A stretch of DNA of 64,000 nucleotides from Sulfurimonas sp. (GCF_026988655.1 NZ_JALSKT010000074.1:20000-83999), one strand, 5' to 3'. Shown: positions 1 through 61,200, numbered from the stretch's first letter. Numbers and translations are program-made. The notes: generated from the letters alone by a model not told the origin.

Positions 1-717
1 CTCGATGAGAGTGGGATACTTCCAAAGCATGTATTACCTCATGATAGCTATCTTATAAATCTCGGGCATCCTGAAGTTGAGAAGCTTGAAAAATCACGTG
101 CTGCGTTTATAGATGAACTTGAACGTTGCGATGCACTTGGACTTGATAAATTAAACTTCCATCCAGGAAGTCATTTGGCGAAACTGACAAAAAAACAAAA
201 AGAAGACAGTGCTTTACTGCAAGAGATAGAAAACAAATGTCTTGATGTTATTGCTGAGTCGATTAACATTGCGCTTGATAAGACACAAAATGTGAAAGCT
301 GTCATAGAAAATACAGCTGGACAAGGAAGTAATCTTGGGTATAAGTTTGAGCATCTTGCATACATTATAGATAAAATAGAAGATAAAAGTCGTGTCGGTG
401 TTTGTATAGATACCTGTCATATGTTTACAGCTGGATATGACATCAGAACAAGAGAAACCTATGATGCGACATGGACTGCGTTTAGCGATATAGTAGGTTT
501 TGAGTATCTCAGTGGTATGCATATCAATGACTCTAAACCACCTCTTGGTTCTCATGTAGATAGACACCACTCTCTAGGCAAAGGAGAAATAGGACTCGAT
601 GCTTTTAGATTTATAATGAATGATGAAAGAATTGATGACATTCCTCTTATTTTAGAGACGATTGATGAGACTATTTGGAGAGAGGAGATAGAACTACTTT
701 ACTCATTTGTAAAGTAG
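1..717 (+). CDS. nfo: Endonuclease IV (5' end outside window)
   Basis: Frame 1 is open from base 1 ([25 protein letters not shown]...). It contains HPGSH, ENTAGQG and CIDTCH, the metal-ligand motifs typical of Nfo/AP endonuclease 2. Confidence 0.85.
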
Positions 718-728
718 CTCTAAAGAGT

Positions 729-2931: not shown

Positions 2932-4116
2932 ATGAAAAAATTACTACTTTTACCGCTTGCTTTATCTTGCTCGGTTTTTGCGGGTGGATATAAGATTCCT
3001 GAGACATCTTTAAATGGTGTAGCTTTATCAGCAGCAACAGTTGCTCATTCGTATGGTGCAGATTCTGCATACTATAACCCTGCTAATATGATATTTATGA
3101 AGGATGAACAAAACATAGAAGCTGATTTGATCTATATAGGTCTTGATCCTGTGCGATATGAGTCAAATGACGGCACAACAGATATCAATGCGAAAAATGA
3201 ACATTTTATTATTCCATCATTAAATTATGTCTCGAGTAAAATGGGAAATGCTAGAGTTGGATTAAGTGTTGTTGTTCCGGGTGGTCTTTCAAAAAGATGG
3301 ACTGACTCTCCTGCTAAGGACAAAGCAGAAGAGTTTACTCTTGAAGTTGTTGAGGTTAATCCAACAGCTGCGTTTGAGATTAATGATAAGCTTGCAGTGG
3401 CAGTTGGTTTTAGAATTATTTCTACATCAGGTATCGTTAAAAGTTCTGCAGCTGTATCTCGTGATATGACTGGAGATAGTATTGACTTTGGCTATAACCT
3501 TGCTTTGGCCTACAAGCCTAATAGCGAGTGGGAAATTGGACTGACGTATAGGTCAAATGTAAATTTAACAGTAGAAGGAGACGCAAAGCTTTATGGGCCT
3601 ACTAGTTTAGTGTATGATGGTGGGGCAAGTGTTACTGTACCACTTCCTGCAACGCTAAACGCAGCTATAGCGTATACATCAGCATCTGATACAACTATCG
3701 AGTTTGTATATGAAAGAGTTAATTGGTCAGCATATAAAAATCTAGATTTTAATTATGCAGGAAATGTCGGACCATTAGCTCCCTATTTTGATGATGCTAT
3801 AACAAAAGACTGGAAGGATACAAATGCATACCGTTTAGGGATAACTCAAAAAATGGATGCATATACCTTTATGGCAGGGGCCGTGATGGATGAGAGTCCA
3901 GTCCCTGATGCGACATTGAGTTATGAGTTGCCAGATTCAGACTCTTTATCTCTTTCAGCAGGAGTTCGTTATCAGTATGATGAAAATATCAATGTCGGTA
4001 TGAGTGCTTTATACTCTATGAGAGAGTCTAGAAAAGTAACAAATGATGATGTAGATGGAGAGTTTTCAAACGCGAATGTACTCATCATTTCAGCTGGTTT
4101 AGGTTATACATTTTAA
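2932..4116 (+). CDS. fadL: Outer-membrane long-chain fatty acid / hydrophobic compound channel (FadL/OMPP1/TodX family)
   Basis: Signal peptide followed by GGYKIPETSLNGVALSAATVAH...YYNPA, an N-terminal hatch-like motif. Alternating beta-strand pattern and C-terminal GLGYTF aromatic terminus. Divergent from the lipase gene. Confidence 0.7.
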   Translation: MKKLLLLPLALSCSVFAGGYKIPETSLNGVALSAATVAHSYGADSAYYNPANMIFMKDEQNIEADLIYIGLDPVRYESNDGTTDINAKNEHFIIPSLNYVSSKMGNARVGLSVVVPGGLSKRWTDSPAKDKAEEFTLEVVEVNPTAAFEINDKLAVAVGFRIISTSGIVKSSAAVSRDMTGDSIDFGYNLALAYKPNSEWEIGLTYRSNVNLTVEGDAKLYGPTSLVYDGGASVTVPLPATLNAAIAYTSASDTTIEFVYERVNWSAYKNLDFNYAGNVGPLAPYFDDAITKDWKDTNAYRLGITQKMDAYTFMAGAVMDESPVPDATLSYELPDSDSLSLSAGVRYQYDENINVGMSALYSMRESRKVTNDDVDGEFSNANVLIISAGLGYTF

Positions 4117-4124
4117 GGAAATAT

Positions 4125-5861
4125 TTGAAAACATTAGTTAATTTTTTAAACGAAAAAGAAGTTGAAAAGTCTGAGATTTTTATACATCTCAAATGTAGCG
4201 TTAATGAAGCGTTAATATTACAGTATATTGCTCAGCGCTATATGAAAGGTCAAGATGATGTTCTTGTACTTGACCTTTTACAAGATTTGTATACGAGTGA
4301 AAATTATGAACATTTGGATCATCTAAAAGAACTCAAAAATTTACTTGAACTTGGTTGGATTCATCAACAAAGTTTTACTCCTATCAAAATATCTGAAGTG
4401 ACTCCACTTGAACTTTTAAATACTGCAGTTGGTTTGACACCGGCTTTTTTGAAGCTTTTGCAAGATGGAACGCTAGATTTAGATTTGCCTGAAATCAAAC
4501 CTTATTCTGATCATCTTGAGTATCTTCAAGATCAATTCTTTAGAATAGAGTTGTATCAAAAAATGAGTGTAATACGTCAAAATGTACATGAACACTCCTT
4601 GGGTATTGATAGACTGCAAAATAAATTGCAACTTCTTGAAAAGCGCATAGAAGAGAGAGTAAGCCAGACTTCTGAGAATCTTGTGCTAGATAAATTTTTC
4701 AAACAAAAAAAGATGAGCAATTATGAACAGGTCATTTTCATCGCATTACTTCGTGAAGAATATGGCTCAACTGATTCATCATTAAGAGAGATGAATACTT
4801 TGATTGATTTGATATCTTTAGATGAATATGAACGTATTAAAAATCGCTCACTTTTAGAAGAAGGCTCCAACCTTTTAAGTAATGGCATCATAGACTATGA
4901 AGAGATGCTCAATCCTTTTGGAGGGATTAGTCGTTCATTTTATATTGTGGATGAGGTACTGCAACGTATCATACACCCACAAAAAACAAAAAAAGTGACA
5001 CGTCTAAAACTCAATGCCTTGGTAGAAGAGCAAGATATCTTTGAGCTAGTAGATAGTGATACTTCTTTAGAAGATGTAGTGCTCAATGAAAAAACAAAAG
5101 AGACACTTGAAAACTTGATGAAGCAGGTTGATAAGCAGGTTGTTTCTCGTTTAGTGAAGTGGGGAATTAAAGATAAAAAGAGTGGTATTGATGCACGCAT
5201 AATTTTTTATGGACCTGCTGGAACTGGAAAAACGATGACGGCGTACTCTTTGGCAAAATCGCTCAAGCGTCAGGTTCTTGCTTTTGACTGTTCTAAGATT
5301 CTTTCTATGTATGTAGGTGAGAGTGAGAAGAATGTGCGCAAAATTTTTGACAGTTTTTATGAACTGAGTGAAAAAACCAAAACGGAACCTATTCTCTTAC
5401 TTAATGAAGCAGACCAATTTTTGGGTGCAAGAAGTAGCGGAAACATTACGGGTTCAGACCAAATGCACAACCAAATGCAAAATATCTTTTTAGAACAGAT
5501 AGAAAACTTTAAAGGGATGCTTATAGCTACGACAAATTTACTTGAAAACATTGATAAAGCATTTTCAAGAAGATTTAACTACAAAATCGAGTTTAAAAAA
5601 CCAGATCAAACGCAGCGACTGGAACTTTGGAAAAAGATGCTTCCCCAAGAAGCACCTTATGAAGAGGGCTTTGATGTAAACAAGCTTGCTGAGTATTCTC
5701 TTACCGGTGGACAAATTAATCTAATAGTGAAAAACACAGCTTACAAGGTTGCAGTAAGAGAAGAACCCCTTTTTAGGGTGAAAGATTTTATAGATGAAAT
5801 CAAACGCGAAAAAGATGCTAATTTTGATAGTGAAAAATCTATGGGGTTTTTAAATAAATAA
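4125..5861 (+). CDS. AAA+ ATPase with about 340-aa uncharacterised N-terminal domain
   Basis: TTG start 6 nt after an AAGGA RBS and 8 nt after the fadL stop. Walker A GPAGTGKT, Walker B LLLNEADQ, and second region of homology ATTNLLENIDKAFSRRF (classical AAA clade). Confidence 0.75.
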   Translation: MKTLVNFLNEKEVEKSEIFIHLKCSVNEALILQYIAQRYMKGQDDVLVLDLLQDLYTSENYEHLDHLKELKNLLELGWIHQQSFTPIKISEVTPLELLNTAVGLTPAFLKLLQDGTLDLDLPEIKPYSDHLEYLQDQFFRIELYQKMSVIRQNVHEHSLGIDRLQNKLQLLEKRIEERVSQTSENLVLDKFFKQKKMSNYEQVIFIALLREEYGSTDSSLREMNTLIDLISLDEYERIKNRSLLEEGSNLLSNGIIDYEEMLNPFGGISRSFYIVDEVLQRIIHPQKTKKVTRLKLNALVEEQDIFELVDSDTSLEDVVLNEKTKETLENLMKQVDKQVVSRLVKWGIKDKKSGIDARIIFYGPAGTGKTMTAYSLAKSLKRQVLAFDCSKILSMYVGESEKNVRKIFDSFYELSEKTKTEPILLLNEADQFLGARSSGNITGSDQMHNQMQNIFLEQIENFKGMLIATTNLLENIDKAFSRRFNYKIEFKKPDQTQRLELWKKMLPQEAPYEEGFDVNKLAEYSLTGGQINLIVKNTAYKVAVREEPLFRVKDFIDEIKREKDANFDSEKSMGFLNK

Positions 5862-7757: not shown

Positions 7758-8999
7758 ATGGCACAAGTAAAAAACAGATTAACACCGTTTTTTGAAAATA
7801 TAACATTTGATAGAGATGATAATGAGTTGGTACTGAACTTTGGTCCTCAACATCCATCTGCACATGGTCAACTGCGTTTGATGTTGCATTTACAACAAGA
7901 ACAAATTGTAAAAGCGCATCCTGATGTTGGTTATTTGCATCGTGGTATGGAAAAAATGGCTGAGAACATGATATATAATGAGTTTATGCCAACGACTGAC
8001 CGTATGGATTACATTGCATCATCTTCAAACAATTATGGTTTTGCTCTTGCAGTTGAAAAGCTCATTGGTTTAGAAGTTCCTCGTCGTGCAAAAGTTATAC
8101 GTATGCTCCTTTTAGAGATAAATCGTCTAATGTCTCACCTCTTTTGGCTTGCGACAACAGCGCTTGATATTGGAGCAATGACAGTTTTCCTTTTTGCTTT
8201 CCGTGAAAGAGAATATCTTATGGATATTATTGAGGGGTATTGTGGTGCACGTTTAACGCATGCAGCTATTCGTATTGGTGGAGTACCTCTTGATTTACAA
8301 GACAGTTTTTTACATCAATTAAGAGTATTTTTAAATAAACTGCCTCAAAATATCAAAGATTATGAAGATTTACTTGACTCTAATCGTATTTGGTTAATGA
8401 GAATGGAAGAGGTAGGAACGATCTCTACCGAGATGGCACTTTCATGGGGTTGTACTGGTCCAATGCTTCGTGCTTCAGGTGTGGCTTGGGATATTCGTAA
8501 AGAAGAGCCATATGAGTTGTATGATGAAGTAGAGTTTAATGTACCTTTTTCAGATAAAGGTGATAACTTTGCAAGATACCGTATTTATATGGAAGAGATG
8601 AGAGAGTCTGCTAAGATTCTTTATCAATGTATAGAGATGTATGAAAAATGTGAAAAAGATGGTCAAACTGACTTAATGGCACATGCACCTAAATATATTT
8701 CTGCTCCAAAGATTGACATCATGACACAAAATTACTCTTTGATGCAGCATTTTGTTCTTGTTACACAAGGTATGAGACCACCAGTAGGGGAAGTGTATAT
8801 TCCAACTGAATCACCAAAAGGTGAACTTGGATTCTACATTAACTCACAAGGTGGGCCATATCCATATAGACTAAAACTTCGTGCGCCATCTTTTTGGCAT
8901 ACAGGGATTTTAACTGACCTTTTACCAGGCCACTATATTCCAGATGTTGTATCAATTATAGGTACTACAAATATTGTATTCGGTGAGGTTGACAGATAA
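7758..8999 (+). CDS. nuoD: NADH-quinone oxidoreductase subunit D
   Basis: [20 protein letters not shown], and the C-terminal GEVDR typical of the 49-kDa subunit. Confidence 0.95.
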
Positions 9000-9232: not shown

Positions 9233-11269
9233 GTGAGTAAAGTATATTTTTCTACTTGGAATGGTGAGCTTGTTAATAATATAGGTAAACCAAAAGAAGA
9301 GTGGGAAGAGTCAGCATATAATTTGCCAGCACAGTATGATGATCATCGTGACTCAAAGGCTTTCATAGGCTGGGATGGTGTTTCATTGTTTAATGAGGAT
9401 GTGGATGTTATCCGTTTAGCTATGGAATATGCTGCACAGTATCAAGTCTATTCAGAAGCATGTGGAAGATGTGCTCCTGGTAGATGGGGTGGTCGTATTT
9501 TATATGATCAACTTGATAAAATTGCTCGTGGTGAAGGTGAAATAGCTGATTTAGACCATTTGAAAGAGATTGGTAAAAGCATGCAGATTACTTCTAAGTG
9601 CGAGATAGGAAAAACAGTTCCAAATCCTATACTTGACTTGATGAATCACTTTGAAGATACATTTTTAGAGTGTATAAATGAAAAGAAAAAATCAAAACAT
9701 TATGATGATGCTATCGGTTATATTGCTAAGATTACGGCACCATGTACGGATGCTTGTCCTGCACATGTTGATATTCCTGGATATATAGAAGGTGTTAGAG
9801 ATTTACGTTTTGATGATTCATTAGAAGCTACGCGTCAGACGATGCCACTAGCACATACTTGTGGTCGTGTCTGTCCGCATCCATGTGAAGATGCTTGCCG
9901 TAGAACAAATCTTGATGAGCCTATCTCAATTATGGCACTCAAACGTCTTGGTGCAGACTGGGAAGCAAATCACGAATACAACTTTTTTCATCCAATGGAG
10001 AAAAAACCATCAATTGATAAAAAAGTAGCGGTTATAGGTGCAGGACCTGCAGGACTTACTACTGCTTACTATCTTGCAGCTGAAGGTATTGATGTAGATG
10101 TATATGAAGAGCTTCCTGTCCTTGGTGGTGAAGTTGCAGTTGGTGTTCCAGAGTATCGTATGCCAGTTGATAAATACAATCAAGATATCGAATGTGTTAG
10201 AGATATGGGTGTGAATTTTATCACTAATAGTCGTATCTCTGCAGATGATATGAGAAGATTTGAGAAAGAGTATGACGCAACTATGGTAGCCGTTGGAACA
10301 AGAATTTCTAAAAAAGTTCGTTGTGAAAATGAAAGACCAGAGATAAAGGGCTATTGGGGAGCTATTGATTTCCTTGATAAAGTAAATCTTTATGAAAAAT
10401 ATGGATACACAATTTCAAAAGAAGAACAAGAAGAAAACCTACTCACGACTGATTATGTTGACTTGACAGGTAAAACTGTTGTTTGTGTCGGTGGTGGATT
10501 TACTTCAATGGACGTTGTGCGTTGTTCTATTCGTGCAAATGCGAAAAAAGTTTATATGATTTATCGTCGTGATGAAAAAACTATTATTCGTAATACAACT
10601 TATGAAGAGTATCATGAAGCAGTAGAAGAGGGTGTTGAGTTTCTTTTCCATTCTGCTGTGAATAATATTACAACAAATGATGATGATATATTGACTGAGT
10701 TGTTAGTTGATAAATTTGAACTTGTACCTGATCCTGATGGTGGTCGTGCACAACTTGTTAAAATTGAAGGTGCATCATATACGATAGAGGCTGATTATCT
10801 TATTCCAGCTGTTTCTCAATCTGCTGATCTGGACTTACTTCCAGAAGAGTGGGATATAGAGATGACTTCATGGGCTACTATCAAAACAAATGGTAAAGAT
10901 TATATGACATCACGCAAAGGTATTTTTGCTTCTGGTGATTGTGAATATGGTCCAATGACAATTGTAAACGCAGTAGGTCAAGCAAAACGTGCAGCTTCTG
11001 TTATGTCACGCTATGTGCAAACAGGTGAAATAACTTTAACTGATGATGAGATAATGGAAGATCATTTGAGTAAACTTAAAGTTTATGATAAGAAAGAAAA
11101 AGTAACTGGTTGGTTGCCAGGTCTTCCTCGTGAGCACTCTTCTGTACTTGACGCCGAAATACGTAAACATAATAATGCTGAAGTGAATCTAGGATTTACT
11201 CAAGATCAGGCCTTAGCAGAGGCAGATAGATGTATGCGTTGTTACTATATAGCAATGGTACAGGCATAA
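9233..11269 (+). CDS. NuoF-C-terminal-like domain fused to a GltD-type (glutamate synthase small-subunit-like) NAD(P)H flavoprotein
   Basis: GTG start after AGGGA. N-terminal region CGRCAPGRWGG...GEGEIADLDHL...KCEIGK resembles the NuoF N3-cluster helical domain, with the third Cys replaced by Gly. Then CTDACPAHVDIP...CGRVCPHPCEDACRR (2x[4Fe-4S]), VAVIGAGPAGL, GVPEYRMP, VGGGFTSMD, YRR and GIFASGDC, all GltD/NfnB hallmarks. Confidence 0.75.
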   Translation: MSKVYFSTWNGELVNNIGKPKEEWEESAYNLPAQYDDHRDSKAFIGWDGVSLFNEDVDVIRLAMEYAAQYQVYSEACGRCAPGRWGGRILYDQLDKIARGEGEIADLDHLKEIGKSMQITSKCEIGKTVPNPILDLMNHFEDTFLECINEKKKSKHYDDAIGYIAKITAPCTDACPAHVDIPGYIEGVRDLRFDDSLEATRQTMPLAHTCGRVCPHPCEDACRRTNLDEPISIMALKRLGADWEANHEYNFFHPMEKKPSIDKKVAVIGAGPAGLTTAYYLAAEGIDVDVYEELPVLGGEVAVGVPEYRMPVDKYNQDIECVRDMGVNFITNSRISADDMRRFEKEYDATMVAVGTRISKKVRCENERPEIKGYWGAIDFLDKVNLYEKYGYTISKEEQEENLLTTDYVDLTGKTVVCVGGGFTSMDVVRCSIRANAKKVYMIYRRDEKTIIRNTTYEEYHEAVEEGVEFLFHSAVNNITTNDDDILTELLVDKFELVPDPDGGRAQLVKIEGASYTIEADYLIPAVSQSADLDLLPEEWDIEMTSWATIKTNGKDYMTSRKGIFASGDCEYGPMTIVNAVGQAKRAASVMSRYVQTGEITLTDDEIMEDHLSKLKVYDKKEKVTGWLPGLPREHSSVLDAEIRKHNNAEVNLGFTQDQALAEADRCMRCYYIAMVQA

Positions 11270-11280: not shown

Positions 11281-13524
11281 ATGAGTAAAATTATTAATTT
11301 TAAAATTGACGGTAAAGATGTTCAAGCAAAAAAAGGTGAAACAATCCTTCAAGTTGCTAGAAAAAATGATCTTTACATACCTACTATGTGTTATATCTCC
11401 AAGACAACGCCTTGTGCGTCTTGTCGTATCTGTTCTGTTGAAGTAGAAGGTGTTGATGGTTTTATACTTTCTTGTAACACACCACCTACTGAGGGCATAG
11501 AAGTAAAAATAAATTCAGATAAGCTTGAAGTCGAAAGAACCAATATCATGAAACTTTATGATGTCAATCATCCATTAGAATGTGGAGTTTGTGATAAGTC
11601 AGGCGAGTGTGATTTGCAAAATATGACATTAGAATTTAATGTAGGAAATCAAAATTTTTCAGCGAAAGATCAACTACGAAAAGTAGAAGATTGGGGGTTG
11701 ATAAATTATGATCCTGCATTATGTATTATGTGTGAAAAATGTGTTCATGTTTGTAATGAAGTTATTGGTGATGATGCCATCGATGTTAAGTTTGGTGGTT
11801 ACTCTTCTGTAATTATTCCAAAAAATTCCCAAACACTTGACTGTACATACTGTGGCGAATGTATCGCAGTTTGTCCTGTTGGAGCACTTGTGAGCAGTGA
11901 TTTTAAATACACTGCGAATGCATGGGAATTATCCCGTGTTCCATCAACTTGTGCACACTGTTCTGCGGGATGTTCATTAGAGTATGAAACTCGTCATTTT
12001 GGTATAAATGGTGAAGACAACATCTACAGAGTGAAAAATAATTTTGAATACAATTCACTTTGTGGAGCAGGACGATTTGGTTTTGATTTTGAAAATCGAG
12101 CAAAAAAAGATGCTACTGCGTTTGAAGGGGCTTTAGAAGCTTTAAAAAATGCAAATGCTATTCGTTTTACTTCAATAATAACGAATGAAGAAGTACTGAT
12201 TTTGCAAAAGTTAAAAGAGAAGCTCGGAATTAAACTTTATAACGAAGATGCACGTTTGTATGCTGACTTTATGAAAGCATATAGTTCTGTAAGTGGAAAG
12301 TTGCATCATAGTGCTTCAATGGATGCAATAAAACAAGCAGATGCAGTGGTAATTATCGGAACAAGAATAGCAACAGATAATCCTATGGTTAGATATGCAA
12401 TCAGAACGGCTTCTCAGCATAATGGCGCAAAAGTAATTTATGCACATCCTTTAGAAGATGCGTTGATGAAAAATACTGCTACACAATTCATCAAATATGA
12501 AGTAGGAACTGAAGAGGGTGTAATAGCTCTCTTAGCAAATGAGTTACTTAAAAATGCTGATATTGATGAAGATGCAAAAGCATTTTTAGAAGAGTTAGAT
12601 TTAGGTTATCTTGAAGCTGAGAGTAATGTAGGCGATGATGAAATCAAGCAAATGAGTAAATCATTTAGTAGAACTCAAAATCATGTATTAGTTCTTGGTA
12701 GTGATTTGTTTGCACATGCCCGTGCAAAAAATATTGCAAAACTAGCAGCTTTAATTGAAAAATATACAAATTTTTCTTTATTGATTGTTCCAAATGAAGT
12801 TAACACTGCTGGTGTATCACTTATCTGTGAACTAGATGTTGATGAGGAGACAGAAAATGTTGTTGGATATAATGCAGATGGTGACTTTGTACTCTCTTCA
12901 TTAGAAGAAGCAGATTTAGCTATGCCAGCACTGAATCAAGTTGAAGGAACAATCGTTAATGTTGATAACAAAGTGTTACCGCTGAATGTAGCCCTAGCAT
13001 TTGATGGTTATCTTCTTAATGATTTAGCAAAGGCTTTTGACATAGATAAAGAGTACACAGTTGAATATACGAGTGAGTTACCAAGTGATAAAGGCTTTAA
13101 AAATATTGCTTTTGATTCGCTAGAGAATTTCTACTCACCACATGGGGATGATATAAGAGGGTATCTTTTAGATGAAGTCTCTTGTGTAGTTGAGGCGGTG
13201 ATTGAACCTGTCGCAGATTTGCCAGAGTTTAATGGTACGGTTGTATATAATTGTAACCCTGTTTTACAATTCAATAAATTTACTAATAAAACAAAACAAC
13301 TTGAAAAAGATACAGTATTAAGAGGTTCAGCACAGTTTGCTGCTGCAGCAAAAATAAATGATGGTGACGAGATAGAAATAATTTCTCAAAACAGAACAAT
13401 TAAAAGAAAATTTAAACTAGATGATGAGCTTAAAGGAACAGTGGCACTCAACCCTGTTTTTGATATAGGTCAAGAGTCAAGTTTATATAGATTTCAAAAA
13501 TCCAAAATAGTGAGAGTAATATAA
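11281..13524 (+). CDS. NuoG-like Fe-S subunit, paralog 1 (747 aa)
   Basis: 2Fe-2S ferredoxin N-terminus, HPLECGVCDKSGECDLQ, CIMCEKCVHVC, CTYCGECIAVCPVGAL and CAHCSAGC, followed by a molybdopterin-oxidoreductase-like body. Confidence 0.8.
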   Translation: MSKIINFKIDGKDVQAKKGETILQVARKNDLYIPTMCYISKTTPCASCRICSVEVEGVDGFILSCNTPPTEGIEVKINSDKLEVERTNIMKLYDVNHPLECGVCDKSGECDLQNMTLEFNVGNQNFSAKDQLRKVEDWGLINYDPALCIMCEKCVHVCNEVIGDDAIDVKFGGYSSVIIPKNSQTLDCTYCGECIAVCPVGALVSSDFKYTANAWELSRVPSTCAHCSAGCSLEYETRHFGINGEDNIYRVKNNFEYNSLCGAGRFGFDFENRAKKDATAFEGALEALKNANAIRFTSIITNEEVLILQKLKEKLGIKLYNEDARLYADFMKAYSSVSGKLHHSASMDAIKQADAVVIIGTRIATDNPMVRYAIRTASQHNGAKVIYAHPLEDALMKNTATQFIKYEVGTEEGVIALLANELLKNADIDEDAKAFLEELDLGYLEAESNVGDDEIKQMSKSFSRTQNHVLVLGSDLFAHARAKNIAKLAALIEKYTNFSLLIVPNEVNTAGVSLICELDVDEETENVVGYNADGDFVLSSLEEADLAMPALNQVEGTIVNVDNKVLPLNVALAFDGYLLNDLAKAFDIDKEYTVEYTSELPSDKGFKNIAFDSLENFYSPHGDDIRGYLLDEVSCVVEAVIEPVADLPEFNGTVVYNCNPVLQFNKFTNKTKQLEKDTVLRGSAQFAAAAKINDGDEIEIISQNRTIKRKFKLDDELKGTVALNPVFDIGQESSLYRFQKSKIVRVI

Positions 13525-26442: not shown

Positions 26443-26445
26443 ATA

Positions 26446-39978: not shown

Positions 39979-40030
39979 ATTTTTTCTCGTATTAGATATT
40001 TTATGCTATTATAGTGAAAATTAATAAATT

Positions 40031-40298: not shown

Positions 40299-40319
40299 TT
40301 CAATTTTGGAGAACATTAC

Positions 40320-48647: not shown

Positions 48648-48672
48648 GTTAAATCCTTTTTTGTTCTAATGT

Positions 48673-48717: not shown

Positions 48718-48759
48718 ATATAAATTATAGCATTAAAAAGTTTATAGAATATTATAAAA

Positions 48760-49215: not shown

Positions 49216-50093
49216 AAAGAATACTCCTCAACTAAGTCAGATTTAGTACAGACTTGAATTTTCATAATAGAACCTATAGACATAAACTGAAAAGTACTTA
49301 CATTTTCCATAATTACAGTGTTTTTTGTAGTGGCATCTGAGAGTTTGTCTCCATCCCAAGGTTGGTAATCATAATAAAGTCTCAAAACCCCTTTGTTATT
49401 TGTTCCAGCTTCATAAACAATGGCATATGCTGTCCAAGCAAGTTGATAATATTCATAAATATCTATGCCTGAAAAGTCAGTTTTTCTTGGGGCAAACTCA
49501 TTAGAATTCGCTCCTGCTTTTATTGGATGCATAGCTCCTTGTTGGTTGAGGATTTCGCCATTCCAGCCATAATCTGTTTGAATATTACTATTTGCACCTA
49601 AAAAATAAAGTGCTGCGTTTGAGAGAGAACTTCCACCACTAGAAAGTTTAGAAATCATGGTGTCTATTTTTGTTGTATCCGTTGCAGGTGAGATGAGTTT
49701 ATCTTTATCTCCCCCGTTGAGGTCTATGATGCCACTCCAGTCTGGAAGATATGGTGTTGCATTGTTCTCAGAACTACCGCGAAATCCTTCATCATGATAT
49801 CCTATCCACTCTAATACCGTAAAAGTACTTCCACTTGCATCTGCTATTGCCACTGGAGTATCACCTGTACTTTTCCTAGCTATGACAGAGTCTTTAATTC
49901 TATATTGCAGTCGTGAAGCTATAATTTCTACGGCAGTTTCGCTATTTGATTGTAGTTCATTATTTACATTTGCAAAGATAAAACTTTTATAGGCTTGTGC
50001 TACAAATTCAACACCGAACTTTCCGATAATCCCCATGATGATAATGACAAAAATCAACTCCAGCATAGTAAAGGCAGCATGTCTTTTCATCAA
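49191..50093 (-). CDS. PilW/MshO-like minor prepilin
   Basis: Leader MMKRHAA/FTMLELIFVIIIMGIIG with Glu at +5. 300 aa. 4-nt overlap with the upstream gene. Confidence 0.6.
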   Translation of the reverse strand: MMKRHAAFTMLELIFVIIIMGIIGKFGVEFVAQAYKSFIFANVNNELQSNSETAVEIIASRLQYRIKDSVIARKSTGDTPVAIADASGSTFTVLEWIGYHDEGFRGSSENNATPYLPDWSGIIDLNGGDKDKLISPATDTTKIDTMISKLSSGGSSLSNAALYFLGANSNIQTDYGWNGEILNQQGAMHPIKAGANSNEFAPRKTDFSGIDIYEYYQLAWTAYAIVYEAGTNNKGVLRLYYDYQPWDGDKLSDATTKNTVIMENVSTFQFMSIGSIMKIQVCTKSDLVEEYSLCKEKTIF

Positions 50094-50713
50094 TAAGTCC
50101 TTTTGTAATAATCAACTTCACCGATATTGGCACTGTATGTTCTTAAAGAACTGATAATATTGTCATTAGAATTAGTAATTGTTACTGTTATTCGTTTTAT
50201 ATTTGGATTGTTTGAACCAGCAAAGGTAATGTTGTGGTCCACTTCAATTTTAGACTTGTATTCTTCTTTATATCCGCTAGCACTCGGTGCTGACCCGAGA
50301 AAAATAGGTAGATAAACATGTTCACTGTCTTCTAGACTTTCAACAGCTGTAGCACTGGCATTTGCCGGAGTAGTCGCACTACTGTTTAAACATCTTCGGT
50401 GAAGCGGTTGATTGATATGACCGGGCATAAGTCTGTATCTTGGTGATGAAGTGTTGTTATCGCAAAAGCCACCAATATCTATAACTCTTGCATAAGAATT
50501 TGGCGAATTAGGTTCAATAGAATTTTCATCCCAGTGTCCAGTTACCACTTCATTAAGCTCTGTAGCAGATGCAAAAATTGCTTCTTGCACTATATTGCTA
50601 TCTATCCCTTTAGAAACTACTTGATTCATCATAGGCAAAGAGATTACAGTTATCGCTATAATAACAATGGCAAAAATAAGCTCAATAAGAGTAAACGCAC
50701 TCTTTCTTACCAC
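50090..50713 (-). CDS. PilV/FimU-like minor prepilin
   Basis: GTG start overlapping the giant gene's stop by 7 nt. Leader (M)VRKSA/FTLIELIFAIVIIAI. Confidence 0.6.
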   Translation of the reverse strand: MVRKSAFTLIELIFAIVIIAITVISLPMMNQVVSKGIDSNIVQEAIFASATELNEVVTGHWDENSIEPNSPNSYARVIDIGGFCDNNTSSPRYRLMPGHINQPLHRRCLNSSATTPANASATAVESLEDSEHVYLPIFLGSAPSASGYKEEYKSKIEVDHNITFAGSNNPNIKRITVTITNSNDNIISSLRTYSANIGEVDYYKRTY

Positions 50714-53700
50714 ATTAGTCTCCTATTTGTTTGATCTGCTGCATTCTTTTTGGTTGTAGTATCTGTTTCAGCTTGTCCAGCCCAATTTCCAGAATTATTT
50801 ATGAATTCAACTTCAAACTCATTTACTACTGCGTTTGGATTGTATTTGCCATAAATCAACCAATTGGATGCCTTGTCTTGCATTGTAGCTTTGTATGGAT
50901 AGCCATTAGTCCCATCATATTTTAATGTAATGATGTCGGGGTAATTTCCAGTAGGTTCTGTACCAGCAACTATTTTAACGTAGTTTGCCCCTTTTTGTTT
51001 GATTTGGCCTGATTTTCCGTAGTTGTTTGTATGTTTTGTATTTACAAACCATCTTGGGTCATCAGTAAATGTGGAGTTTATATCATCTTGGAGTAAGGTC
51101 TTATTTCCATCATTTGAAATATCACAAAAAACTTCATACGTTATAGAAGCATTTCCTTCATTTCCAAAATAACGTTGTCTTTGCACATGTGAACGAGCAT
51201 AGTAGTGCTTTATATTGTGATTTAATTGTATGTTTCCTTTTGTTTCATTCGCAACATTAAAATCAGCTGCATATCCACAGTTTGCACTGTTTGAACATTT
51301 AACATCATAATCTATAAAAGTTACTGCTTGAGGATTTATTGCTTTATTCACTTTCCTCTGATAGTTGAGATTTAAAATAGTTTTCACTTCTCCTTTTGCA
51401 CTTTTTATGAAATCTGAACTTGCTAAGGCTATAACCTCTTTTGAGTTGTTTATATCTTTTAGTACATCTCGTATGTCTGTAGCATTTTCATCTTGAATAT
51501 GTACCCTATATTGGTAGGCTACCGGAAGATCGATTATATCTCTACTAATGTTGATGTCCAAAGGAGTTGCATAACATCCCTCTACGAAGTTTGTAGTAAC
51601 AATAGCATTCTTTCCAACTGCTTTAATATTTCCATTGAGATGATAAGACATATTTTCATCTTTACTTAAATCTGCCATATAGATAAATGGACTATTCACT
51701 ATATCTGGATCATCATTGAGTCCGACTGATGGTACGATACTTCTTAGGTCAAACTCATAGGGGTGAAATGTTGGTCTCAAGTTGACATATTGTAAGCCAT
51801 TGTCTAAGTTTGTGTGTACAGAGCTAATATTACACCCTGTAAAATGGTCAAAAGTGATTGATTTTGGAACTGCAGAACTTCCAACTACACAATCAGGAGT
51901 TGTTGTAAAATAGCTACCAGTATGATGTGCTTGTACAACTCTGTCTATTGAAGTCCAAGTTGTATCTAAAAGAGCAAGTGTATACTCTCCCACTTGAGAT
52001 ATAGATGAGTTCATCTCTCGTATCCCATTGATTATAGTGATATTTAAGTCTTTATTTGTTGTGTCATTACAGCCGGTTTTTGTCGTTGTTGGCGACCACT
52101 GATACGAAGATGTCGTTCCTGTTACTGCGTTTAGCACAGTGTTATAACCCCTTGATGCATTGTTGTCAATATGGTTCGTAGCATTAATCTCAAGGTTATA
52201 CTGATAGCCAGCTGCTAAATGAAGTGTTTGGGGTACTAGCGTTGTAGCTCCTGAGTAGTTTGTAGTTAATCGTACTTTAGGAGTATTAGGGTTTGTCTGA
52301 TTTTGGTCATCTATATTTGCCAAAAATGCTTCTGGTCTGATGGAGAAATTATCACGTGAACAGACAAGTTTTGTACTGAGCCCATAAACACATTCCATAC
52401 AAAGGTCAAGCTCATTTTTTGTCATTGCGGAATCAAAAGAGGTCCCAGAATCGCTACAATAATCTTCTACTTTATTAGTGCCTACAGCACATACCCCTTC
52501 TTTGATAGCATCTGGAAAATTAAGAACATTATATCGCTTTTCACCATTGTTATTTAATGTCTCAAGAGTAATAATCTCGCCTGTATCTGGGTCTACATTG
52601 TAACTTATACGAAAAGCAGCATCTTCTCTTGCAATCTGATTAAAGGTGACATTGTCAGGGTTTAAAGGTACTTTTGATACATTTTCAAACACAACCCACT
52701 CTCTATCACTGATAGAGTTTGTTATCTCACTACAAGAAGCTTCTGTAAAGTGAAATGATTTTAAGTCCAGCATATCAACAGCAACTACTGTACTTGTAGC
52801 CTTTAGAACATGGAGGCTTGGATTTAGACTTTCATTGGTATCTACAGATATAACACTAAGATTACCTTTTCTGTTTGTGACTTGCGTATTTATATTATAA
52901 TAGTAATTTGTTTCATCAGTATATAAACCATTTTCTATGATATTGAAGTTCCCATAAACAGGTGCATAATTGTGTGAACCATTACTACATATAGGCACAT
53001 CTTGATCTATGACGCTTGATCTTGAAATAATAAGTACATCATTTGGATCGGCTGAAAGAGGAATAGTTAAATTGTAATCAATTCTTGCATTTATAGGAAG
53101 AGATAAGGGTGTTTGATAAGGATCTAGTGAAACATAAATATAAAAATAATCATAGGCATCAAATGAAGTAATAGGTATGCCTTTAACGTAGCTACTGCTA
53201 GTATCCAAAACTCCATCACTAATTTTTGTTCTTGTAAAACTATTTGGTTCTGTGACCCAAGTACTATTTGCTTTGTATGAGGCTTGTGAAGTATTAATAT
53301 CAATAAGGTTAAAAAAGATATCAGTAGCAACAATTTCTGAATCTTTCATATTTCGAAAGTACATTGCTACTTCGATAGGCTCATTTGTATTGTTTATTAC
53401 CGCATCACCACTAATATATGGTCCTTTTGCTGGGTCATATCCTTCCGTTAAATAAAGTTCATTTTGTTTATAAGCATAATCGTAACAGATACTAGGTTCT
53501 CTTAGTCCATTGATTTTATTGACAAAAACGCCCGTATCCCACTGATCATCTGAGGTATCGGCTAAGGCCATTTTAAAGTGGTATGTTTCTCCTGGTGTTA
53601 GTTTGTCTAAGGTAGCATGAAGTTTGTGTGTTAGTCCATCATATTCTACGTTAATTGGAGCTTTTGTTTGTGTACAGTTAGGTACACCCTTACCTTTAAC

Positions 53701-54405
53701 ACAATTATCTATATAGTATTGTGTATTGGTCAAAATTTCTGGTGTGCCATCATCGTATACTCCAACTAGTCCATTATTTACATTGTTTACGGTTACTGTG
53801 TCATAGTTATTTATATTATCGATATTTACATAGTGTTGATTGTCGATGACTCTTGCGATATTATATGTTTGATTTAAATCACCACCTGAAACAAAAAAAC
53901 CAAAAGAGTCATTAAATCTAGAACCTACATACTCGTTGTACTCTTCAGAAGCAAATTGGTAATCAACGAGTAACAATCTTGTGTTTTCATCCAAAGTAAC
54001 ATCAAACTCAAAAACAACAGTATCAAAATTCGCACGAGGATCAATAGCTAAGAGGTCAGGATCATTAAGGTTAGCAGTATGGGTAATTGATGTTCGCCAA
54101 TTACTATTGGTAGTAAAAGATTCTTGAACTGACATGGCAGTTAAGATAATTCCTTCGTCAATCTCTAGCTTTGCACCACCAACTCCATTAGAAAACGTAC
54201 CGACTTGTGTTGCCTCACCAAATGTTATTTTTGGATTAGTAATTGTAATCCCTATACCTTGAATTTGGGATGCAAGTTCTGTCGCTGTTACATCATATTT
54301 ACAGTTTGCTGTGGAAGTATTGACACAGTTCGTGGCAGCAAAAAGAACAGGTGTAAAAATGAAGAAAGTGAAAAAACTTATTAACTTTAATAATTTACCT
54401 TTCAT
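50707..54405 (-). CDS. 1232-aa secreted surface protein with N-terminal choice-of-anchor-L domain (PilY1/MshQ-analogous adhesin candidate)
   Basis: ATG 54405 follows AAGGGGA. Signal peptide MKGKLLKLISFFTFFIFTPVLFA/ATN. Residues about 60-230 show GIILTA...DPDLLAI...FDTVVFEFDV...YQFASEEYNEYVGSRFNDSFGFFVSGG...VNNVNNG, the hallmark of the choice-of-anchor L domain. The remaining roughly 900 aa are Asn/Thr-rich and beta-type. Confidence 0.7.
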   Translation of the reverse strand: MKGKLLKLISFFTFFIFTPVLFAATNCVNTSTANCKYDVTATELASQIQGIGITITNPKITFGEATQVGTFSNGVGGAKLEIDEGIILTAMSVQESFTTNSNWRTSITHTANLNDPDLLAIDPRANFDTVVFEFDVTLDENTRLLLVDYQFASEEYNEYVGSRFNDSFGFFVSGGDLNQTYNIARVIDNQHYVNIDNINNYDTVTVNNVNNGLVGVYDDGTPEILTNTQYYIDNCVKGKGVPNCTQTKAPINVEYDGLTHKLHATLDKLTPGETYHFKMALADTSDDQWDTGVFVNKINGLREPSICYDYAYKQNELYLTEGYDPAKGPYISGDAVINNTNEPIEVAMYFRNMKDSEIVATDIFFNLIDINTSQASYKANSTWVTEPNSFTRTKISDGVLDTSSSYVKGIPITSFDAYDYFYIYVSLDPYQTPLSLPINARIDYNLTIPLSADPNDVLIISRSSVIDQDVPICSNGSHNYAPVYGNFNIIENGLYTDETNYYYNINTQVTNRKGNLSVISVDTNESLNPSLHVLKATSTVVAVDMLDLKSFHFTEASCSEITNSISDREWVVFENVSKVPLNPDNVTFNQIAREDAAFRISYNVDPDTGEIITLETLNNNGEKRYNVLNFPDAIKEGVCAVGTNKVEDYCSDSGTSFDSAMTKNELDLCMECVYGLSTKLVCSRDNFSIRPEAFLANIDDQNQTNPNTPKVRLTTNYSGATTLVPQTLHLAAGYQYNLEINATNHIDNNASRGYNTVLNAVTGTTSSYQWSPTTTKTGCNDTTNKDLNITIINGIREMNSSISQVGEYTLALLDTTWTSIDRVVQAHHTGSYFTTTPDCVVGSSAVPKSITFDHFTGCNISSVHTNLDNGLQYVNLRPTFHPYEFDLRSIVPSVGLNDDPDIVNSPFIYMADLSKDENMSYHLNGNIKAVGKNAIVTTNFVEGCYATPLDINISRDIIDLPVAYQYRVHIQDENATDIRDVLKDINNSKEVIALASSDFIKSAKGEVKTILNLNYQRKVNKAINPQAVTFIDYDVKCSNSANCGYAADFNVANETKGNIQLNHNIKHYYARSHVQRQRYFGNEGNASITYEVFCDISNDGNKTLLQDDINSTFTDDPRWFVNTKHTNNYGKSGQIKQKGANYVKIVAGTEPTGNYPDIITLKYDGTNGYPYKATMQDKASNWLIYGKYNPNAVVNEFEVEFINNSGNWAGQAETDTTTKKNAADQTNRRLMW

Positions 54406-54468
54406 GACAATCCCCTTTTTCACAAAAATCACTGCACACCCAAGCAGGGCTCAGTAGCAAAGTGCAGT

Positions 54469-54639: not shown

Positions 54640-55383
54640 ATGAAAACAAAAATGCGTATGCTCATTGTACTTACTGCGTTTAGCATTCTCTTTAGTGCTT
54701 GCTCAAAAGAGGTAGACGAATACAACAAGCCGGCTGTTTATTGGTATGGTAAGATTATTGATTCTATTTCGAATGGAAACTATGATAAGGCGGATGATTA
54801 TTATTCGTCATTGCAGGGTGAACATATAGGCTCACCACTTTTACCTGAAGCTACGATGATATTGGCTATTGCCCACATGCACAATGAAGAGTATCTCTTG
54901 AGCGAACATTTTTTAAACGAATACATCAAACGATATGCTAACACTAATGAGATAGAGTTTGCAGAGTTTTTGAGAATTAAAGCAAAATACAAATCACTGC
55001 CACACCCAAGACGTGATCAGGTATTTGTACAAGAAGCGATTGAAGAAGCAAAAGCTTTTAAAATAAAGCACCCACACTCAATGTATTACTCTTTAGTCGA
55101 TTCTATATTGACACGGCTTTATCTTGGTGATGCTTCATTTAATGAAAGTATTGCGCAATTGTATGAGCGCATTGACAAGCCTAAATCTGCAAAGTTTTAT
55201 AGGGCTATAAAACCTGAACCATGGATTAATTGGGATGAAGTACAACGTGCTCAGACTCCATGGTATCGAGAGTGGTTTGAGGGTGACGGTACTTCAAGTT
55301 GGTATGCTTTTCTTATACCAGATACAAAAAGTGTTGTTTCACGTAACAGTGTTCCTGACACAGATGAAAATTTAACAAAATAA
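54640..55383 (+). CDS. bamD: Outer membrane protein assembly factor BamD-like lipoprotein
   Basis: Lipobox LFSAC, TPR-like helices (YWYGKIIDSISNGNYDKADDYY...). Sits immediately upstream of lon, as in C. jejuni (from memory). Confidence 0.7.
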   Translation: MKTKMRMLIVLTAFSILFSACSKEVDEYNKPAVYWYGKIIDSISNGNYDKADDYYSSLQGEHIGSPLLPEATMILAIAHMHNEEYLLSEHFLNEYIKRYANTNEIEFAEFLRIKAKYKSLPHPRRDQVFVQEAIEEAKAFKIKHPHSMYYSLVDSILTRLYLGDASFNESIAQLYERIDKPKSAKFYRAIKPEPWINWDEVQRAQTPWYREWFEGDGTSSWYAFLIPDTKSVVSRNSVPDTDENLTK

Positions 55384-57816: not shown

Positions 57817-57828
57817 AACTTGTTTTAA
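57796..57828. terminator. Bidirectional rho-independent terminator between convergent lon and the receiver gene
   Basis: Perfect 15-bp arms TTAAAACAAGTTCTA gtg TAGAACTTGTTTTAA. A T-run follows the GC-containing core on both strands. Overlaps the lon stop codon. Confidence 0.6.
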
Positions 57829-57842
57829 ACGCAGTATCAGGC

Positions 57843-58220: not shown

Positions 58221-58231
58221 TTATATTTTCC

Positions 58232-61200
58232 TTAGATAAATTTTTCAATTACTAATCGAAGTAAGTCTTTGTTTACTACATTTTTTATTGTCTCATGTAC
58301 ATACATGATGTCATTTGGATCTTCAACAGCAGAGGAGTCATTGATAAGAACAAGATAAGATGGTAAATCTCGTAAGTCACTTGATGCTTTGACAAGTGTG
58401 GTAAAGTTTTCAAGATGCATTCCTGGAAATTCTTTATCAAATAGGATGACTTTATAGCTATTTGTTTGCACTGCGTTATTGAGTTCATCCATGTTTTGTG
58501 CAATATCATATTTATAACCCAGTGAATCTAAAACTTTTTTGAAAAGTTTTGTCTCAAAGGGAGTCTTTTTCGCGAGCAAAATATCAGCTTTATAGCTAGG
58601 TTTTTCAACTTTTGCAGGTTTTTCAACTTCCATCGGCTCTTGAACTTGTACAGTTTCTTCAACTTCTACATTTTCATCTATTTGTTTGACTTGTGCTGCT
58701 TTTGTTTTAACAATATATTGGGAAAGAAAGTGATTGAGCAACATAATGATTTCAGTACGTACAAGAGGTTTTGTAGTATATTCATCAAGTCCAGCCTCTA
58801 AAAATCTCTCTCTATCTCCTTTGAGTGCATTTGCAGTTAAGGCAACAATAGGAACATGCACTTGATTATTATCCTCTTCGTATTCAAGTATTTCGTGTGT
58901 TGCTTCTATACCATCAAGAAAAGGCATTTGTATATCCATAAAGATAAGATTATAATCACCATCCTTTCTTTTTTGAAATGCTTCAAGACCGTTTGAGGCA
59001 ATATCAACATTAAGCCCTAAATCTTCAAGGGTTCTTTTGATGAGTTTTTGATTGATTATATTGTCTTCTGCAACAAGAACTTTGGCATCGAATTTTGCAC
59101 TTTGCGTATCAAATACGGCAGCCTCTTCAAGCTCTTCTTTTCGTTCACTTTGTGTTAGTTCTTGATAATTTTGTAAAGCAACTTTTAGTTTTGAATTGTT
59201 CAGTGGTTCATAAATAGATTTGAAAATTTTGATTTGCATTTTCTCTACTACACACATAAAGAATGATTTTGTAAGTAGAATTAGTTTTTGAGATAATTCA
59301 CCATAAGCCTTGAGGTCTTCCTCATTTGTATAATCGTAATCTATAAACGTCAAGTCATAATTGATTTGTTTTTGTAATGTTTCAAGCTCATGTAAGTCTG
59401 TAAAAGTTGTATAGCTTACACCATAAAAATCTAAATATTCACGTAGATAAGCATCTTGTTTTTTTCTCTTATGTGCTGACTCTAAAATAAGCGCATTGAT
59501 ACTTGAATAGACTCCTTTTGAGCTTTCATTTACAGTTTCAATCTCTTCAAAATCTAAGGTAAAGAAGAAAGTAGTTCCTACTCCTGGCTCACTATTGAGA
59601 TCAAGTTGTCCACCCATTAGCTCTATAAATCTTGCAGAAATTGTAAGCCCAAGACCAGTACCACCATATTTACGAGTGATTGAAGTGTCAGCTTGAGAAA
59701 AAGCTTCAAATATTTTAGATTTTTGCTCGCTTGTTACACCAATACCACTATCTTGAACTTCAAAGCGAATTCTTGTAATGTTTTCTTGTTTTGATTCGAG
59801 TTTTCTAATTTCAACATTGATTGCACCCATGCTACTTGTGAATTTAACTGCGTTTGAAAGAAGATTAATAAGGACTTCTTTGATTTTAGTTGGATCACCT
59901 TTGATGGATTGCTCTAGTTGTGGATCAATAAAACACCCAAGATCAATTTGTTTTTCACTAGCACGGACTGCGTAAACTTCAACAGCACTCTCAAACTCAT
60001 CTATAGGATTAAATATTACATCTTCAATCTCAAGTTTGTTACTTTCAATTTTGGATAAATCAAGAATATTATTGATAATTTCAAGAAGGTTTTCTGAACT
60101 TTTTTCAATAATCTCTACAAATTCTGTTTGTTCTTCTTTGAGACCTGTATCTTTGAGAAGTTCCGTAAAACCAACGATTCCATTGAGTGGAGTACGTATC
60201 TCATGAGACATATTTGCGAAGAACATTGATTTGGCTTCACTTGCTTCTTGTGCAGATTCTTTATCTCGTCGTGTTTGTTCAATGATGTTTTCAAGAAGTC
60301 TGTAAGCTTCCTCGGTACCTTTTGCCGTATGGAGGTTAATATTGGAATGTTTTTCCCCATCACTTGTATCTTCAGCAACTCTTTTTAAAACATTTTCAAG
60401 ATTAAGGATATTCCTTGCAATTTCATTAGAAAGTAAAAAGCCTAGTATTGCCAAAATTACAGAAACAAGCCAGATTGTTAGGGTTATTGCGAGTAATTGT
60501 AAGGCATCAGTTTTAACTTTCATTGCTCTTTCATCCATCGCAGTTAAGAGAATATTTTCTGCTTCTGAGATGATATTAGTTTTTTCTGAAAGCATTGCAA
60601 ACCAAACACCTGCATTTGTTTCGTATTTACCCGTTGAAGCAGCAATCAAAATTGCTGCACGTTCATTGTTAATATCTTCAAAAAGCTCTTGCGCATCTTC
60701 ATTTTTAAAAATGTTATTTAGCTTTTCAATTAAAGATTTATCTTTTAAAGTATCATAGTTGAGAGAATCAGCTTTAGCAATTAAAGAAATCCATTTATTG
60801 ATATCCTCTTCTTCGAGTGGCGTAGATCTTGCAATGGCATATGAGAGATAATCACGTTCAGCTGTCGTAAACTTATTTGCTCGTACGAAAGTGATGTATC
60901 TTTCAGCGTATTGATTAATTTGGTTGTCAATTTGTGCTGAAGTAATCTTTTTGAGTTCATTAATGGCAATAGTTTCTGCTTTTCCATAAATATTTTCATA
61001 AACTTCATCAAAGTTCGTTTTATGTTTCTCAACACGAGAACGCAGATTTTTTATATTTTTCAGGGCTCTCTCAAGTTCACTCGTTGCTTTACATGTTGGA
61101 CAATTAGAAATACCATTTGAATGATCATGTAAAGAAGGAGTCTCCGTGATACTATGAAGATATTTTGCTTCAAGTGTATCAACTATCTTTCTCTGTTTTT

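Follow-up and report, generated by a model that had tools for sequence, protein, structure and literature searches.

Sequence-specific DNA uptake has been documented in two bacterial families only, besides a methylation-based case in Campylobacter jejuni, and the origin and change of uptake sequences is a long-standing open question. In C. jejuni, according to work attributed to Beauchamp et al. in 2017, methylation of RAATTY by CtsM reportedly licenses DNA uptake. Chi sequences, such as GCTGGTGG in E. coli and the AddAB Chi of Firmicutes, are species-specific 5-8-mers within genes that occur about once per few kb. The Neisseriaceae carry the DNA uptake sequence (DUS; AT-GCCGTCTGAA and its dialects), whose receptor is the minor pilin ComP, and the Pasteurellaceae carry the uptake signal sequence (USS), of the AAGTGCGGT and ACAAGCGGT types. 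In both the USS and the DUS, orientation relative to coding is skewed by as much as about 2:1, and there is no general bias toward one strand (PMC2346458). In Actinobacillus pleuropneumoniae, USS copies with one mismatch are about 10-fold over-represented, the Highly Iterated Palindrome 1 of cyanobacteria (HIP1; GCGATCGC) is an octamer enriched about 1000-fold that has a cognate methyltransferase, and E. coli Chi is enriched 5.7-fold (PMC1939737). In the 64-kb stretch of Sulfurimonas sp. DNA analysed here (NZ_JALSKT010000074.1, positions 20000-83999; hereafter the window, meaning the whole stretch), the octamer CTGCGTTT is far more frequent than expected by chance, and our best explanation, an evenly balanced proposition, is that this word is a clade-specific self-DNA tag of the DUS or USS kind, which would serve natural transformation and may be read in a methylated form.

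The word CTGCGTTT, or its complement AAACGCAG, was found 38 times in the window, 24 times on the + strand and 14 times on the - strand, which corresponds to a copy every 1.6 kb or so and an enrichment of about 30-fold over chance. Dinucleotide-preserving shuffles of the window, whose G+C content is 34.7%, yielded 1.31 ± 1.18 copies and never more than 4 in any of 100 runs, and Markov models of order 1 to order 3 predicted 1.4 to 2.6 copies. The 9-mer ACTGCGTTT was seen 21 times against 0.45 expected. Among all 8-mers in the window, CTGCGTTT deviates most from expectation, and its frequency equals that of TTTTAAAA. When synonymous codons were shuffled inside each gene, preserving the proteins and the codon usage of every gene, 4.4 ± 1.9 copies remained (maximum 11 in 500 shuffles). 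A preliminary description of the window, made from the sequence alone, had listed 38 cores and 21 nine-mers, had set the expectation at about 1 and below 1, respectively, for a G+C content of roughly 35%, and had proposed the codon-shuffled null; our recount returned the same numbers and every coordinate, the null models bear out the estimate (1.3-2.6 and 0.45), and the enrichment survives the codon shuffle. Only its count of T before the nine-mer, 13 of 21, had to be corrected to 14 of 21. The observation is real and strong, and, as described below, broader than could be seen from the window.

Searches with NuoD and RecG assigned the window to an uncultured Sulfurimonas. A RecG (P0001) identical to that of the window was found on an 88.9-kb Sulfurimonas sp. 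contig in NCBI and on a 67.5-kb contig in ENA. Short Logan contigs of the same population were found as well. The ENA contig continues for 4.9 kb past the end of the window, bringing the available sequence to about 69 kb, and this out-of-sample segment carried 4 further copies of the word where about 0.1 was expected. The RecG search returned no strain-level relative, the next-closest RecG being 95% identical and located on a 2.3-kb contig. None of the GTDB species representatives reached via NuoD carried the word, the closest having about 84% nucleotide identity over the nuo operon. We compared 80 metagenome loci around recG, in which the best RecG had 81% amino-acid identity, and added three loci with 87% identity (L164-L166). 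Thirteen diverged loci belonging to one Sulfurimonas clade, with RecG 71-87% identical to that of the window, were enriched for CTGCGTTT (L081, L082, L087, L088, L090, L102, L107, L118, L126, L137, L143, L147 and L164), and the word was also enriched in L165 and L166. Locus L081 had 16 copies in 21.8 kb, and L118 had 21 copies in 10.4 kb, each in a unique context; L091 showed a weak excess only, with 5 copies in 21.8 kb. The window pooled with 12 of the carrier loci (214.5 kb; hereafter the pooled loci) contained 154 perfect copies against about 5 expected, again about 30-fold. In L087 (JGI11705J14877_10000166), all 9 copies lay on one strand with T...A flanks, while the other carriers use both strands; this may reflect a lineage with real polarity, or chance.

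Other clades carried hyperabundant words of their own, namely TGGCGTTT, CCGCGTTT, TGCGTGAG, GGCATGTG, TAGCATCA, AGATTCTA and, in S. autotrophica, TTACATGTAA, the last of which is a palindrome, whereas CTGCGTTT is not. By locus, TGGCGTTT was found in L005, L093, L138 and L145 (12 copies against 0.18 expected in L138), (A)CCGCGTTT in L128 (6 against 0.04), TTGCGTGTT in L135, TGCGTGAG in L004, L108, L109, L117 and L130, tTGGCATGTGgaa in L099, L141, L150, L154 and L159 (15 against 0.27 in L141), TAGCATCA in L008, L134 and L149, CTACATGATA in L123, AGATTCTA in L097, L098, L106 and L127, and TACATGTA in L083 and L084. Among cultured strains, DSM 16294, the type strain of S. autotrophica (CP002205.1), had 14 copies of TTACATGTA in 21.8 kb against 0.5 expected; in the segment concerned (L173; 1784487-1806280) the word is the palindromic TTACATGTA(A). 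In S. sediminis (CP041235.1, L174), likewise cultured, AAGCAGTGA and TACATGTAA occurred 9 and 10 times against 0.24 and 0.47 expected. Several sister words include cores typical of methyltransferases, CATG in TTACATGTAA and GGCATGTG and GANTC in AGATTCTA. In a neighbour-joining tree of RecG, CTGCGTTT was restricted to one major clade; the variants TGGCGTTT and CCGCGTTT, which differ by one or two bases, fell inside this clade, and the other words followed clades of their own. As this is a single-gene tree with long terminal branches, only its clade-level pattern is to be trusted. The word types are stable over lineages that have diverged to about 70-75% nucleotide identity. The word AGATTCTA/TAGAATCT, with its GANTC, was hyperabundant alike in enterohepatic Helicobacter (92 copies of AGATTCTA in 63 kb in L055, L063 and L064, 47/45 by strand) and in the low-GC Sulfurimonas-like loci L097, L098, L106 and L127 (32 copies in 46 kb). 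In the Campylobacter loci L056, L058-L062, L067 and L068, RAATTY, which corresponds to the CtsM methylation motif, was strongly over-represented and YAATTR rare; AAATTT reached a 5-fold enrichment, or roughly one site in every 165 bp, and AAATTC/GAATTT was also high.

Orthologous sites were used to ask how copies arise and persist. At conserved sites in the nuo genes, the place of the word is taken in relatives by the near-matches ACTGCATTT, GCTGCTTTT, CTTCGTTT and GCAGCATTT. Most of the differences are synonymous, some change an amino acid, and they are spread over different positions of the motif. In lineages that carry the word, near-matches have thus been converted directionally to the word as a whole, and a bias at one base does not account for the pattern. 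Retention was compared for the window sites in the 36-58 kb region, with the other 8-mers of the same alignments as the reference. Where the aligned locus carries the word, window sites were perfectly kept in 33% of comparisons (22 of 66), the figure for other 8-mers being 14.8%; where it lacks the word, they were kept in 0.5% (1 of 195), and other 8-mers in 11.2%. For example, the recG site at 46715 encodes M-L-R-L with the codon CTG in 8 of 13 aligned word-carrying loci, whereas all 14 aligned word-lacking loci have other residues or codons there. As sites are kept above background in carriers and almost never in non-carriers, the word is the derived state, created and then retained only in the lineages that carry it.

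Mapping onto genes placed 37 of the 38 copies within coding sequences. The window copies occupy five of the six reading frames, and those of the pooled loci all six. In the window two frames predominate, the sense frame xCT-GCG-TTT ([T/A]AF) with 14 copies and the antisense frame AAC-GCA-Gxx (NA[V/A]) with 13; LR[L/F] and QTQ-type frames account for 4 each and KRS for 2. Relative to transcription, 18 copies are sense and 19 antisense, so that the earlier account of five frames, unrelated genes and a ratio of about 18:19 was reproduced. Rare codons are recruited at motif sites: xCT-GCG-TTT spells 14 of 30 [TASP]AF tripeptides although GCG makes up 10% of Ala codons, and CTG, 4% of Leu codons, is used at the LR[L/F] sites. 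Taken with the comparison of orthologues, the codon shuffle and this recruitment of rare codons support well that selection or drive targets the DNA and not the peptide, as had been proposed from the sequence alone. Alignment of the 38 copies gave the consensus t-R-CTGCGTTT-R, with a purine at position -1 in 36 of 38, a purine at position +1 in 36 of 38 and T at position -2 in 21 of 38, and without conservation beyond ±2 bases. The flanking purines are specific to the window lineage, as L087 favours T...A and L118 has no preference. The 24 single-mismatch variants were near background in the window, and in the pooled loci they summed to 208 against 142-153 expected (1.4-fold). Variants at the edges are tolerated in the pooled loci (TTGCGTTT 4.8-fold and CTGCGTT[A/C] about 3-fold enriched), whereas the interior variants CTGCGATT, CTGCGGTT, CTGCGTCT and CTGCGTGT are depleted (2 in sum against about 11 expected). 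That the word is a by-product of protein sequence or of the usage of codons or codon pairs, or is left over from a repeat such as a miniature inverted-repeat transposable element (MITE) or a repetitive extragenic palindrome (REP), might be suggested by the dominance of two frames, yet is extremely improbable, because the synonymous shuffle falls far short of the real count and the copies occupy both coding orientations in unrelated housekeeping genes. The peptide or codon explanation was ruled out by the shuffle together with the use of frames and rare codons, and a REP or MITE by the unique outer flanks and the placement of 37 copies within unrelated genes.

Compared with the DUS, the Sulfurimonas word is alike in density (about one per 1-2 kb for the DUS), in occurring on both strands and mostly within genes, in a coding-orientation bias of about 2:1, and in having clade variants whose distribution follows phylogeny and in which one or two bases at one end are changed (CTGCGTTT, TGGCGTTT and CCGCGTTT). 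It is unrelated to the DUS in sequence and has a shorter core (8 bp, or 10 bp with the R flanks), it lacks terminator or intergenic enrichment, and its sister clades bear wholly unrelated words, one of them palindromic. Like the USS, it is hyperabundant and frame-tolerant, accumulates where proteins tolerate it and comes in two or more types per family; the USS has no general strand bias, and that of the word is a weak 60:40. Unlike the USS, it has no AT-rich flanking segments and no intergenic excess, and its mismatch cloud is far smaller (1.4-fold against about 10-fold). The likeness to USS and DUS suggested by the preliminary description therefore holds for density, both strands and frame independence and fails for intergenic and terminator enrichment; it is strengthened by the finding that the word is common to a clade and replaced elsewhere by variants of one or two bases or by unrelated words. 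Its remark that it was not aware of an uptake sequence described for Campylobacterota needs qualification, as the RAATTY uptake mark is reported from C. jejuni, of the same phylum; that mark is of another kind. It is likewise a self-recognition mark for transformation, and RAATTY is enriched in Campylobacter loci, yet it is a degenerate palindrome of 6 bp whose methylated form is what is read, whereas the Sulfurimonas word is asymmetric and 8-10 bp long. Taken together, the word departs from classical uptake sequences in its lack of terminator association, its sharper core, its greater diversity of words and a possible link to methylation.

If CTGCGTTT is a self-DNA tag, the sequence-specific step of natural transformation would favour fragments that carry it, and this step would take place at the cell surface, where double-stranded DNA, possibly bearing the word in methylated form, would be bound or taken up. 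Conspecific DNA, taken up and recombined again and again, would then turn near-matches into perfect copies where the protein tolerates the change, and the word would build up to the density seen here on both strands. A change in the recognising protein would change the preferred word and so give rise to different words in different clades. That DNA uptake is the recognising step, that the organism is transformable and that methylation has a role are what we infer from these patterns. Extending this, we consider it nearly, though not quite, an even proposition that Sulfurimonas, and apparently other Campylobacterota too, possess a family of clade-specific self-recognition words that are transformation uptake sequences, possibly read in methylated form. 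Several observations weigh against an uptake function. With 96.6% of the window coding, 37 genic copies mean no intergenic excess, the intergenic share being 1 of 38 copies in the window (3.4% non-coding) and 4 of 122 in the pooled loci (4.8% non-coding), and terminator-like inverted pairs are not enriched, the sole pair in the window being intragenic. The small one-mismatch cloud of the pooled loci points the same way, as do the CATG, GANTC and AATT cores within several sister words and a strand preference of 2.0 (95% CI, confidence interval, 1.3-3.1) that persisted in the pooled loci after removal of the coding effect. The pilin-like proteins of the window gave no match to the ComP_DUS domain in Pfam, unlike in the DUS system, and the degree to which pilins resemble those of the window shows no correspondence with word type. 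Literature searches over about 8 million papers returned no paper linking Sulfurimonas with uptake sequences, the only one to pair uptake sequences with Epsilonproteobacteria being a general review of genome dynamics in pathogens, and searches for the word itself returned primers only. Should the proposal be true, it would describe an uptake-sequence system that is the third to be known, independent of the other two and far more variable, in free-living chemolithoautotrophs and not in host-associated pathogens. A genus whose related clades bear different words would be a natural experiment on the turnover of uptake specificity, a gene co-varying with word type could reveal the receptor or methyltransferase, and in metagenomes from vents and sediments the words may mark lineages, for use in binning and in spotting foreign DNA.

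Orientation bears most directly on signals that are read in one direction. The 24:14 split in the window gives p=0.14 against 1:1, p=0.07 against a skew of 75% and p=1e-5 against 90%. When orientation was compared with GC skew, as had been suggested for this motif, the pooled loci had CTGCGTTT on the positive-skew strand in 60% of copies, a nearly symmetric distribution. Separation of coding and strand effects in the pooled loci gave a coding-orientation preference of 1.76, with antisense favoured, beside the strand preference given above; the compositional background already shows a strand preference of 1.30 for one-mismatch and 1.25 for two-mismatch words, and shared orthologous sites inflate the estimate. 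The residual strand bias is thus weak and above compositional background. Even the minority orientation exceeds expectation more than 10-fold (14 copies against about 0.7-1.3 expected in the window), and the sister words are close to 1:1 by strand (for example 16/16, 16/21, 20/29, 15/17 and 47/45). The earlier description of the motif as orientation-neutral therefore stands insofar as both strands are heavily enriched, and gives way to a weak 60:40 bias above background. A signal of the FtsK-orienting polar sequence (KOPS) type, with a strand skew of about 90%, was ruled out by the window and pooled figures. A Chi-like signal, which AddAB would read on single-stranded DNA so as to protect or repair the chromosome, draws some support from the word being, like Chi, a short genic word of comparable density, from its weak excess on the skew-positive strand with odds of 2.0 after removal of the coding effect, and from a preprint on HIP1 that also raises a Chi-like role (bioRxiv 10.1101/2024.09.10.611283). 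We nevertheless judge it very unlikely, since Chi is strongly co-oriented with replication (about 75% or more) and enriched about 5-fold (5.7-fold in E. coli; PMC1939737), whereas here both orientations exceed 10-fold, the overall enrichment is about 30-fold and the bias, partly compositional, is only 60:40; sister words that are near 1:1 or, in one case, palindromic also fit poorly with an orientation-dependent signal.

A methylation-linked word of the HIP1 kind is a more serious rival to the self-DNA tag, although still an unlikely one. Here a conserved orphan methyltransferase would recognise all or a core of the word, and selection, or a repair or conversion bias linked to methylation, would keep the word abundant because it serves the chromosome, for instance in replication, in repair or in organising the nucleoid; uptake would not be what drives it. 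HIP1 provides the precedent of a hyperabundant genic octamer, its function long unknown, with a cognate methyltransferase, and one sister word, TTACATGTAA of S. autotrophica, is likewise palindromic. The methyltransferase cores in TTACATGTAA, GGCATGTG and AGATTCTA, together with AAATTT (RAATTY) in Campylobacter, make a methylation-centred process without uptake a live alternative. Against this, CTGCGTTT itself is not palindromic, its enrichment is about 30-fold as opposed to about 1000-fold, and a contiguous asymmetric word of 8-10 bp exceeds, to our knowledge, the usual methyltransferase sites. The words have also stayed stable between lineages that share only about 70-75% of their nucleotides, in contrast to the mobile specificities of restriction-modification systems, and changes between orthologues strike several motif positions. 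The footprint of very-short-patch repair was ruled out, as a bias at a single position is unable to give the counts for the word with its four C-to-T variants (233 against 46 expected), and TTGCGTTT is 4.8-fold enriched. The same preprint reports that HIP1, when methylated, stimulates the natural transformation of a cyanobacterium (bioRxiv 10.1101/2024.09.10.611283), so that this rival may merge with the self-DNA tag, and methylation and uptake may be two halves of one mechanism. Another chromosomal function or process, for example one in which a nucleoid or segregation protein binds the word or a defence system uses it as a self-marker, seems similarly improbable. The copies are spaced slightly more evenly than random, which would suit it, with a coefficient of variation (CV) of 0.76 (P about 0.06, not significant), and word types are stable within clades. 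We know of no nucleoid- or defence-type system, however, that produces a 30-fold enriched genic 8-mer on both strands together with its replacement by unrelated words between sister clades.

Part of the gene content of the window is relevant to the self-DNA tag. A complete operon of the type II secretion system (T2SS) type at 26011-36003 contains gspG, F, C, D and E, several pseudopilins and four unassigned genes. A second operon, at 48760-54432 (-) beside recG and hpf, codes for type IV pilin-like proteins with N-terminal methylation motifs: a choice-of-anchor-L protein of 1241 aa comes first, then three small proteins, of which two have the prepilin N-termini KSAFTLIEL and HAAFTMLEL. With the T2SS operon and the type IV pilin-like genes, pilus-type hardware is present in the window. 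The pilin-like genes adjacent to recG received no support as the specificity determinant, as carriers and non-carriers are not told apart by how closely these genes match the window. The 48760-54432 operon resembles a PilY1/minor-pilin cluster and is kept beside recG and hpf across Sulfurimonas loci. The window also encodes a phospholipase of the VolA/Pla-1 family (729-2768, -), a type of T2SS substrate.

Along the window, the first copies are gCTGCGTTTa at 101-108 (+), sense in the gene ending at 717 (GCT-GCG-TTT, A-A-F), and aCTGCGTTTa at 476-483 (+; sense, T-A-F), where relatives have unrelated codons. The gene at 2932-4116 contains gCTGCGTTTg at 3368-3375 (+; sense, A-A-F) and an antisense copy at 3657-3664 (-; N-A-A). 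The antisense copy at 5608-5615 (-; Q-T-Q in 4125-5861) is missing in 15 of 15 aligned relatives. The copy in nuoD (7758-8999) at 7872-7879 (+) spells L-R-L with the rare CTG and is common to L001 only, and at 10966-10973 (-; antisense in 9233-11269, N-A-V) most relatives have ACTGCATTT. Next come 12116-12123 (+; T-A-F in 11281-13524) and 14428-14435 (+; A-A-F in 13524-16010). Two copies lie in 16014-17003, at 16276-16283 (+; T-A-F), from which the ACTGCATTT of relatives differs synonymously, and at 16639-16646 (+; A-A-F), also with a synonymous change. The gene at 18520-20439 has two A-A-F copies, at 19124-19131 and 19721-19728 (both +), and 23546-25903 has one at 24528-24535 (+; A-A-F).

Within the T2SS operon, the pseudopilin gene at 26446-26964 carries copies at 26560-26567 (+; L-R-L) and 26672-26679 (-; antisense, K-T-Q), followed by antisense copies at 27687-27694 (-; gspF, 26961-28175, K-R-S), 28549-28556 (-; 28178-29086, N-A-V) and 29680-29687 (-; 29070-29999, Q-T-Q). 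The copies at 29923-29930 (+) and 29931-29938 (-) stand back to back as the left and right halves of a perfect 18-bp palindrome, ACTGCGTTTAAACGCAGT (29922-29939), the only inverted pair in the window, which lies within the gene at 29070-29999, just upstream of the point where the next gene, overlapping this one, starts. Two further antisense copies reading N-A-V are at 30759-30766 (-; 30397-30927) and 31108-31115 (-; gspC, 30896-31732), and the copy at 35492-35499 (+) in the pseudopilin gene at 35473-36003 encodes T-A-F at the prepilin N-terminus.

Several copies in the second half of the window are also present in other loci. Two are antisense in 39199-39978 (-), at 39693-39700 (+; N-A-V, also in L081, L091 and L118) and 39903-39910 (+; N-A-A, also in L081). 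The copy at 40753-40760 (-; Q-T-Q), antisense in a cheZ-like gene (40263-41060), is also found in L081, L091, L102, L118 and L083, that at 42297-42304 (+; P-A-F in 41060-42334) in L118, and that at 44063-44070 (-; antisense in 43623-44480, N-A-A) in L081, L088 and L090. A copy at 45003-45010 (+) encodes L-R-L in 44481-45284. The two recG copies are the M-L-R-L site with the rare CTG at 46715-46722 (+) and an antisense copy at 46999-47006 (-; N-A-V), the latter also in L088, L090 and L118. Antisense copies follow at 49613-49620 (+; N-A-A) in the pilin-like gene at 49191-50093 (-) and at 50829-50836 and 52125-52132 (both +; N-A-V) in 50707-54432 (-). The bamD-like gene at 54640-55383 has a copy at 54674-54681 (+; T-A-F), the sole intergenic copy at 57827-57834 (-) lies in a 26-bp spacer between the convergent lon and a response-regulator gene, and the last, at 59848-59855 (+; N-A-V), is antisense in a hybrid histidine kinase gene (58232-61441, -).

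Two intergenic elements of about 270-285 bp, at 40023-40305 and 42866-43133, are bounded by 32-33-nt inverted repeats. An Rfam scan of the window, these elements included, matched no family, and a tRNA scan was likewise empty. The elements share a 58-nt segment in opposite orientation (40083-40140 and 43025-43082, 90% identical) that contains the palindrome GCTACTAGTAGC, and a short hairpin of the same AAGTGCCTGACAAG arm is found at 48672-48718. The two elements look like MITEs or structured RNAs.

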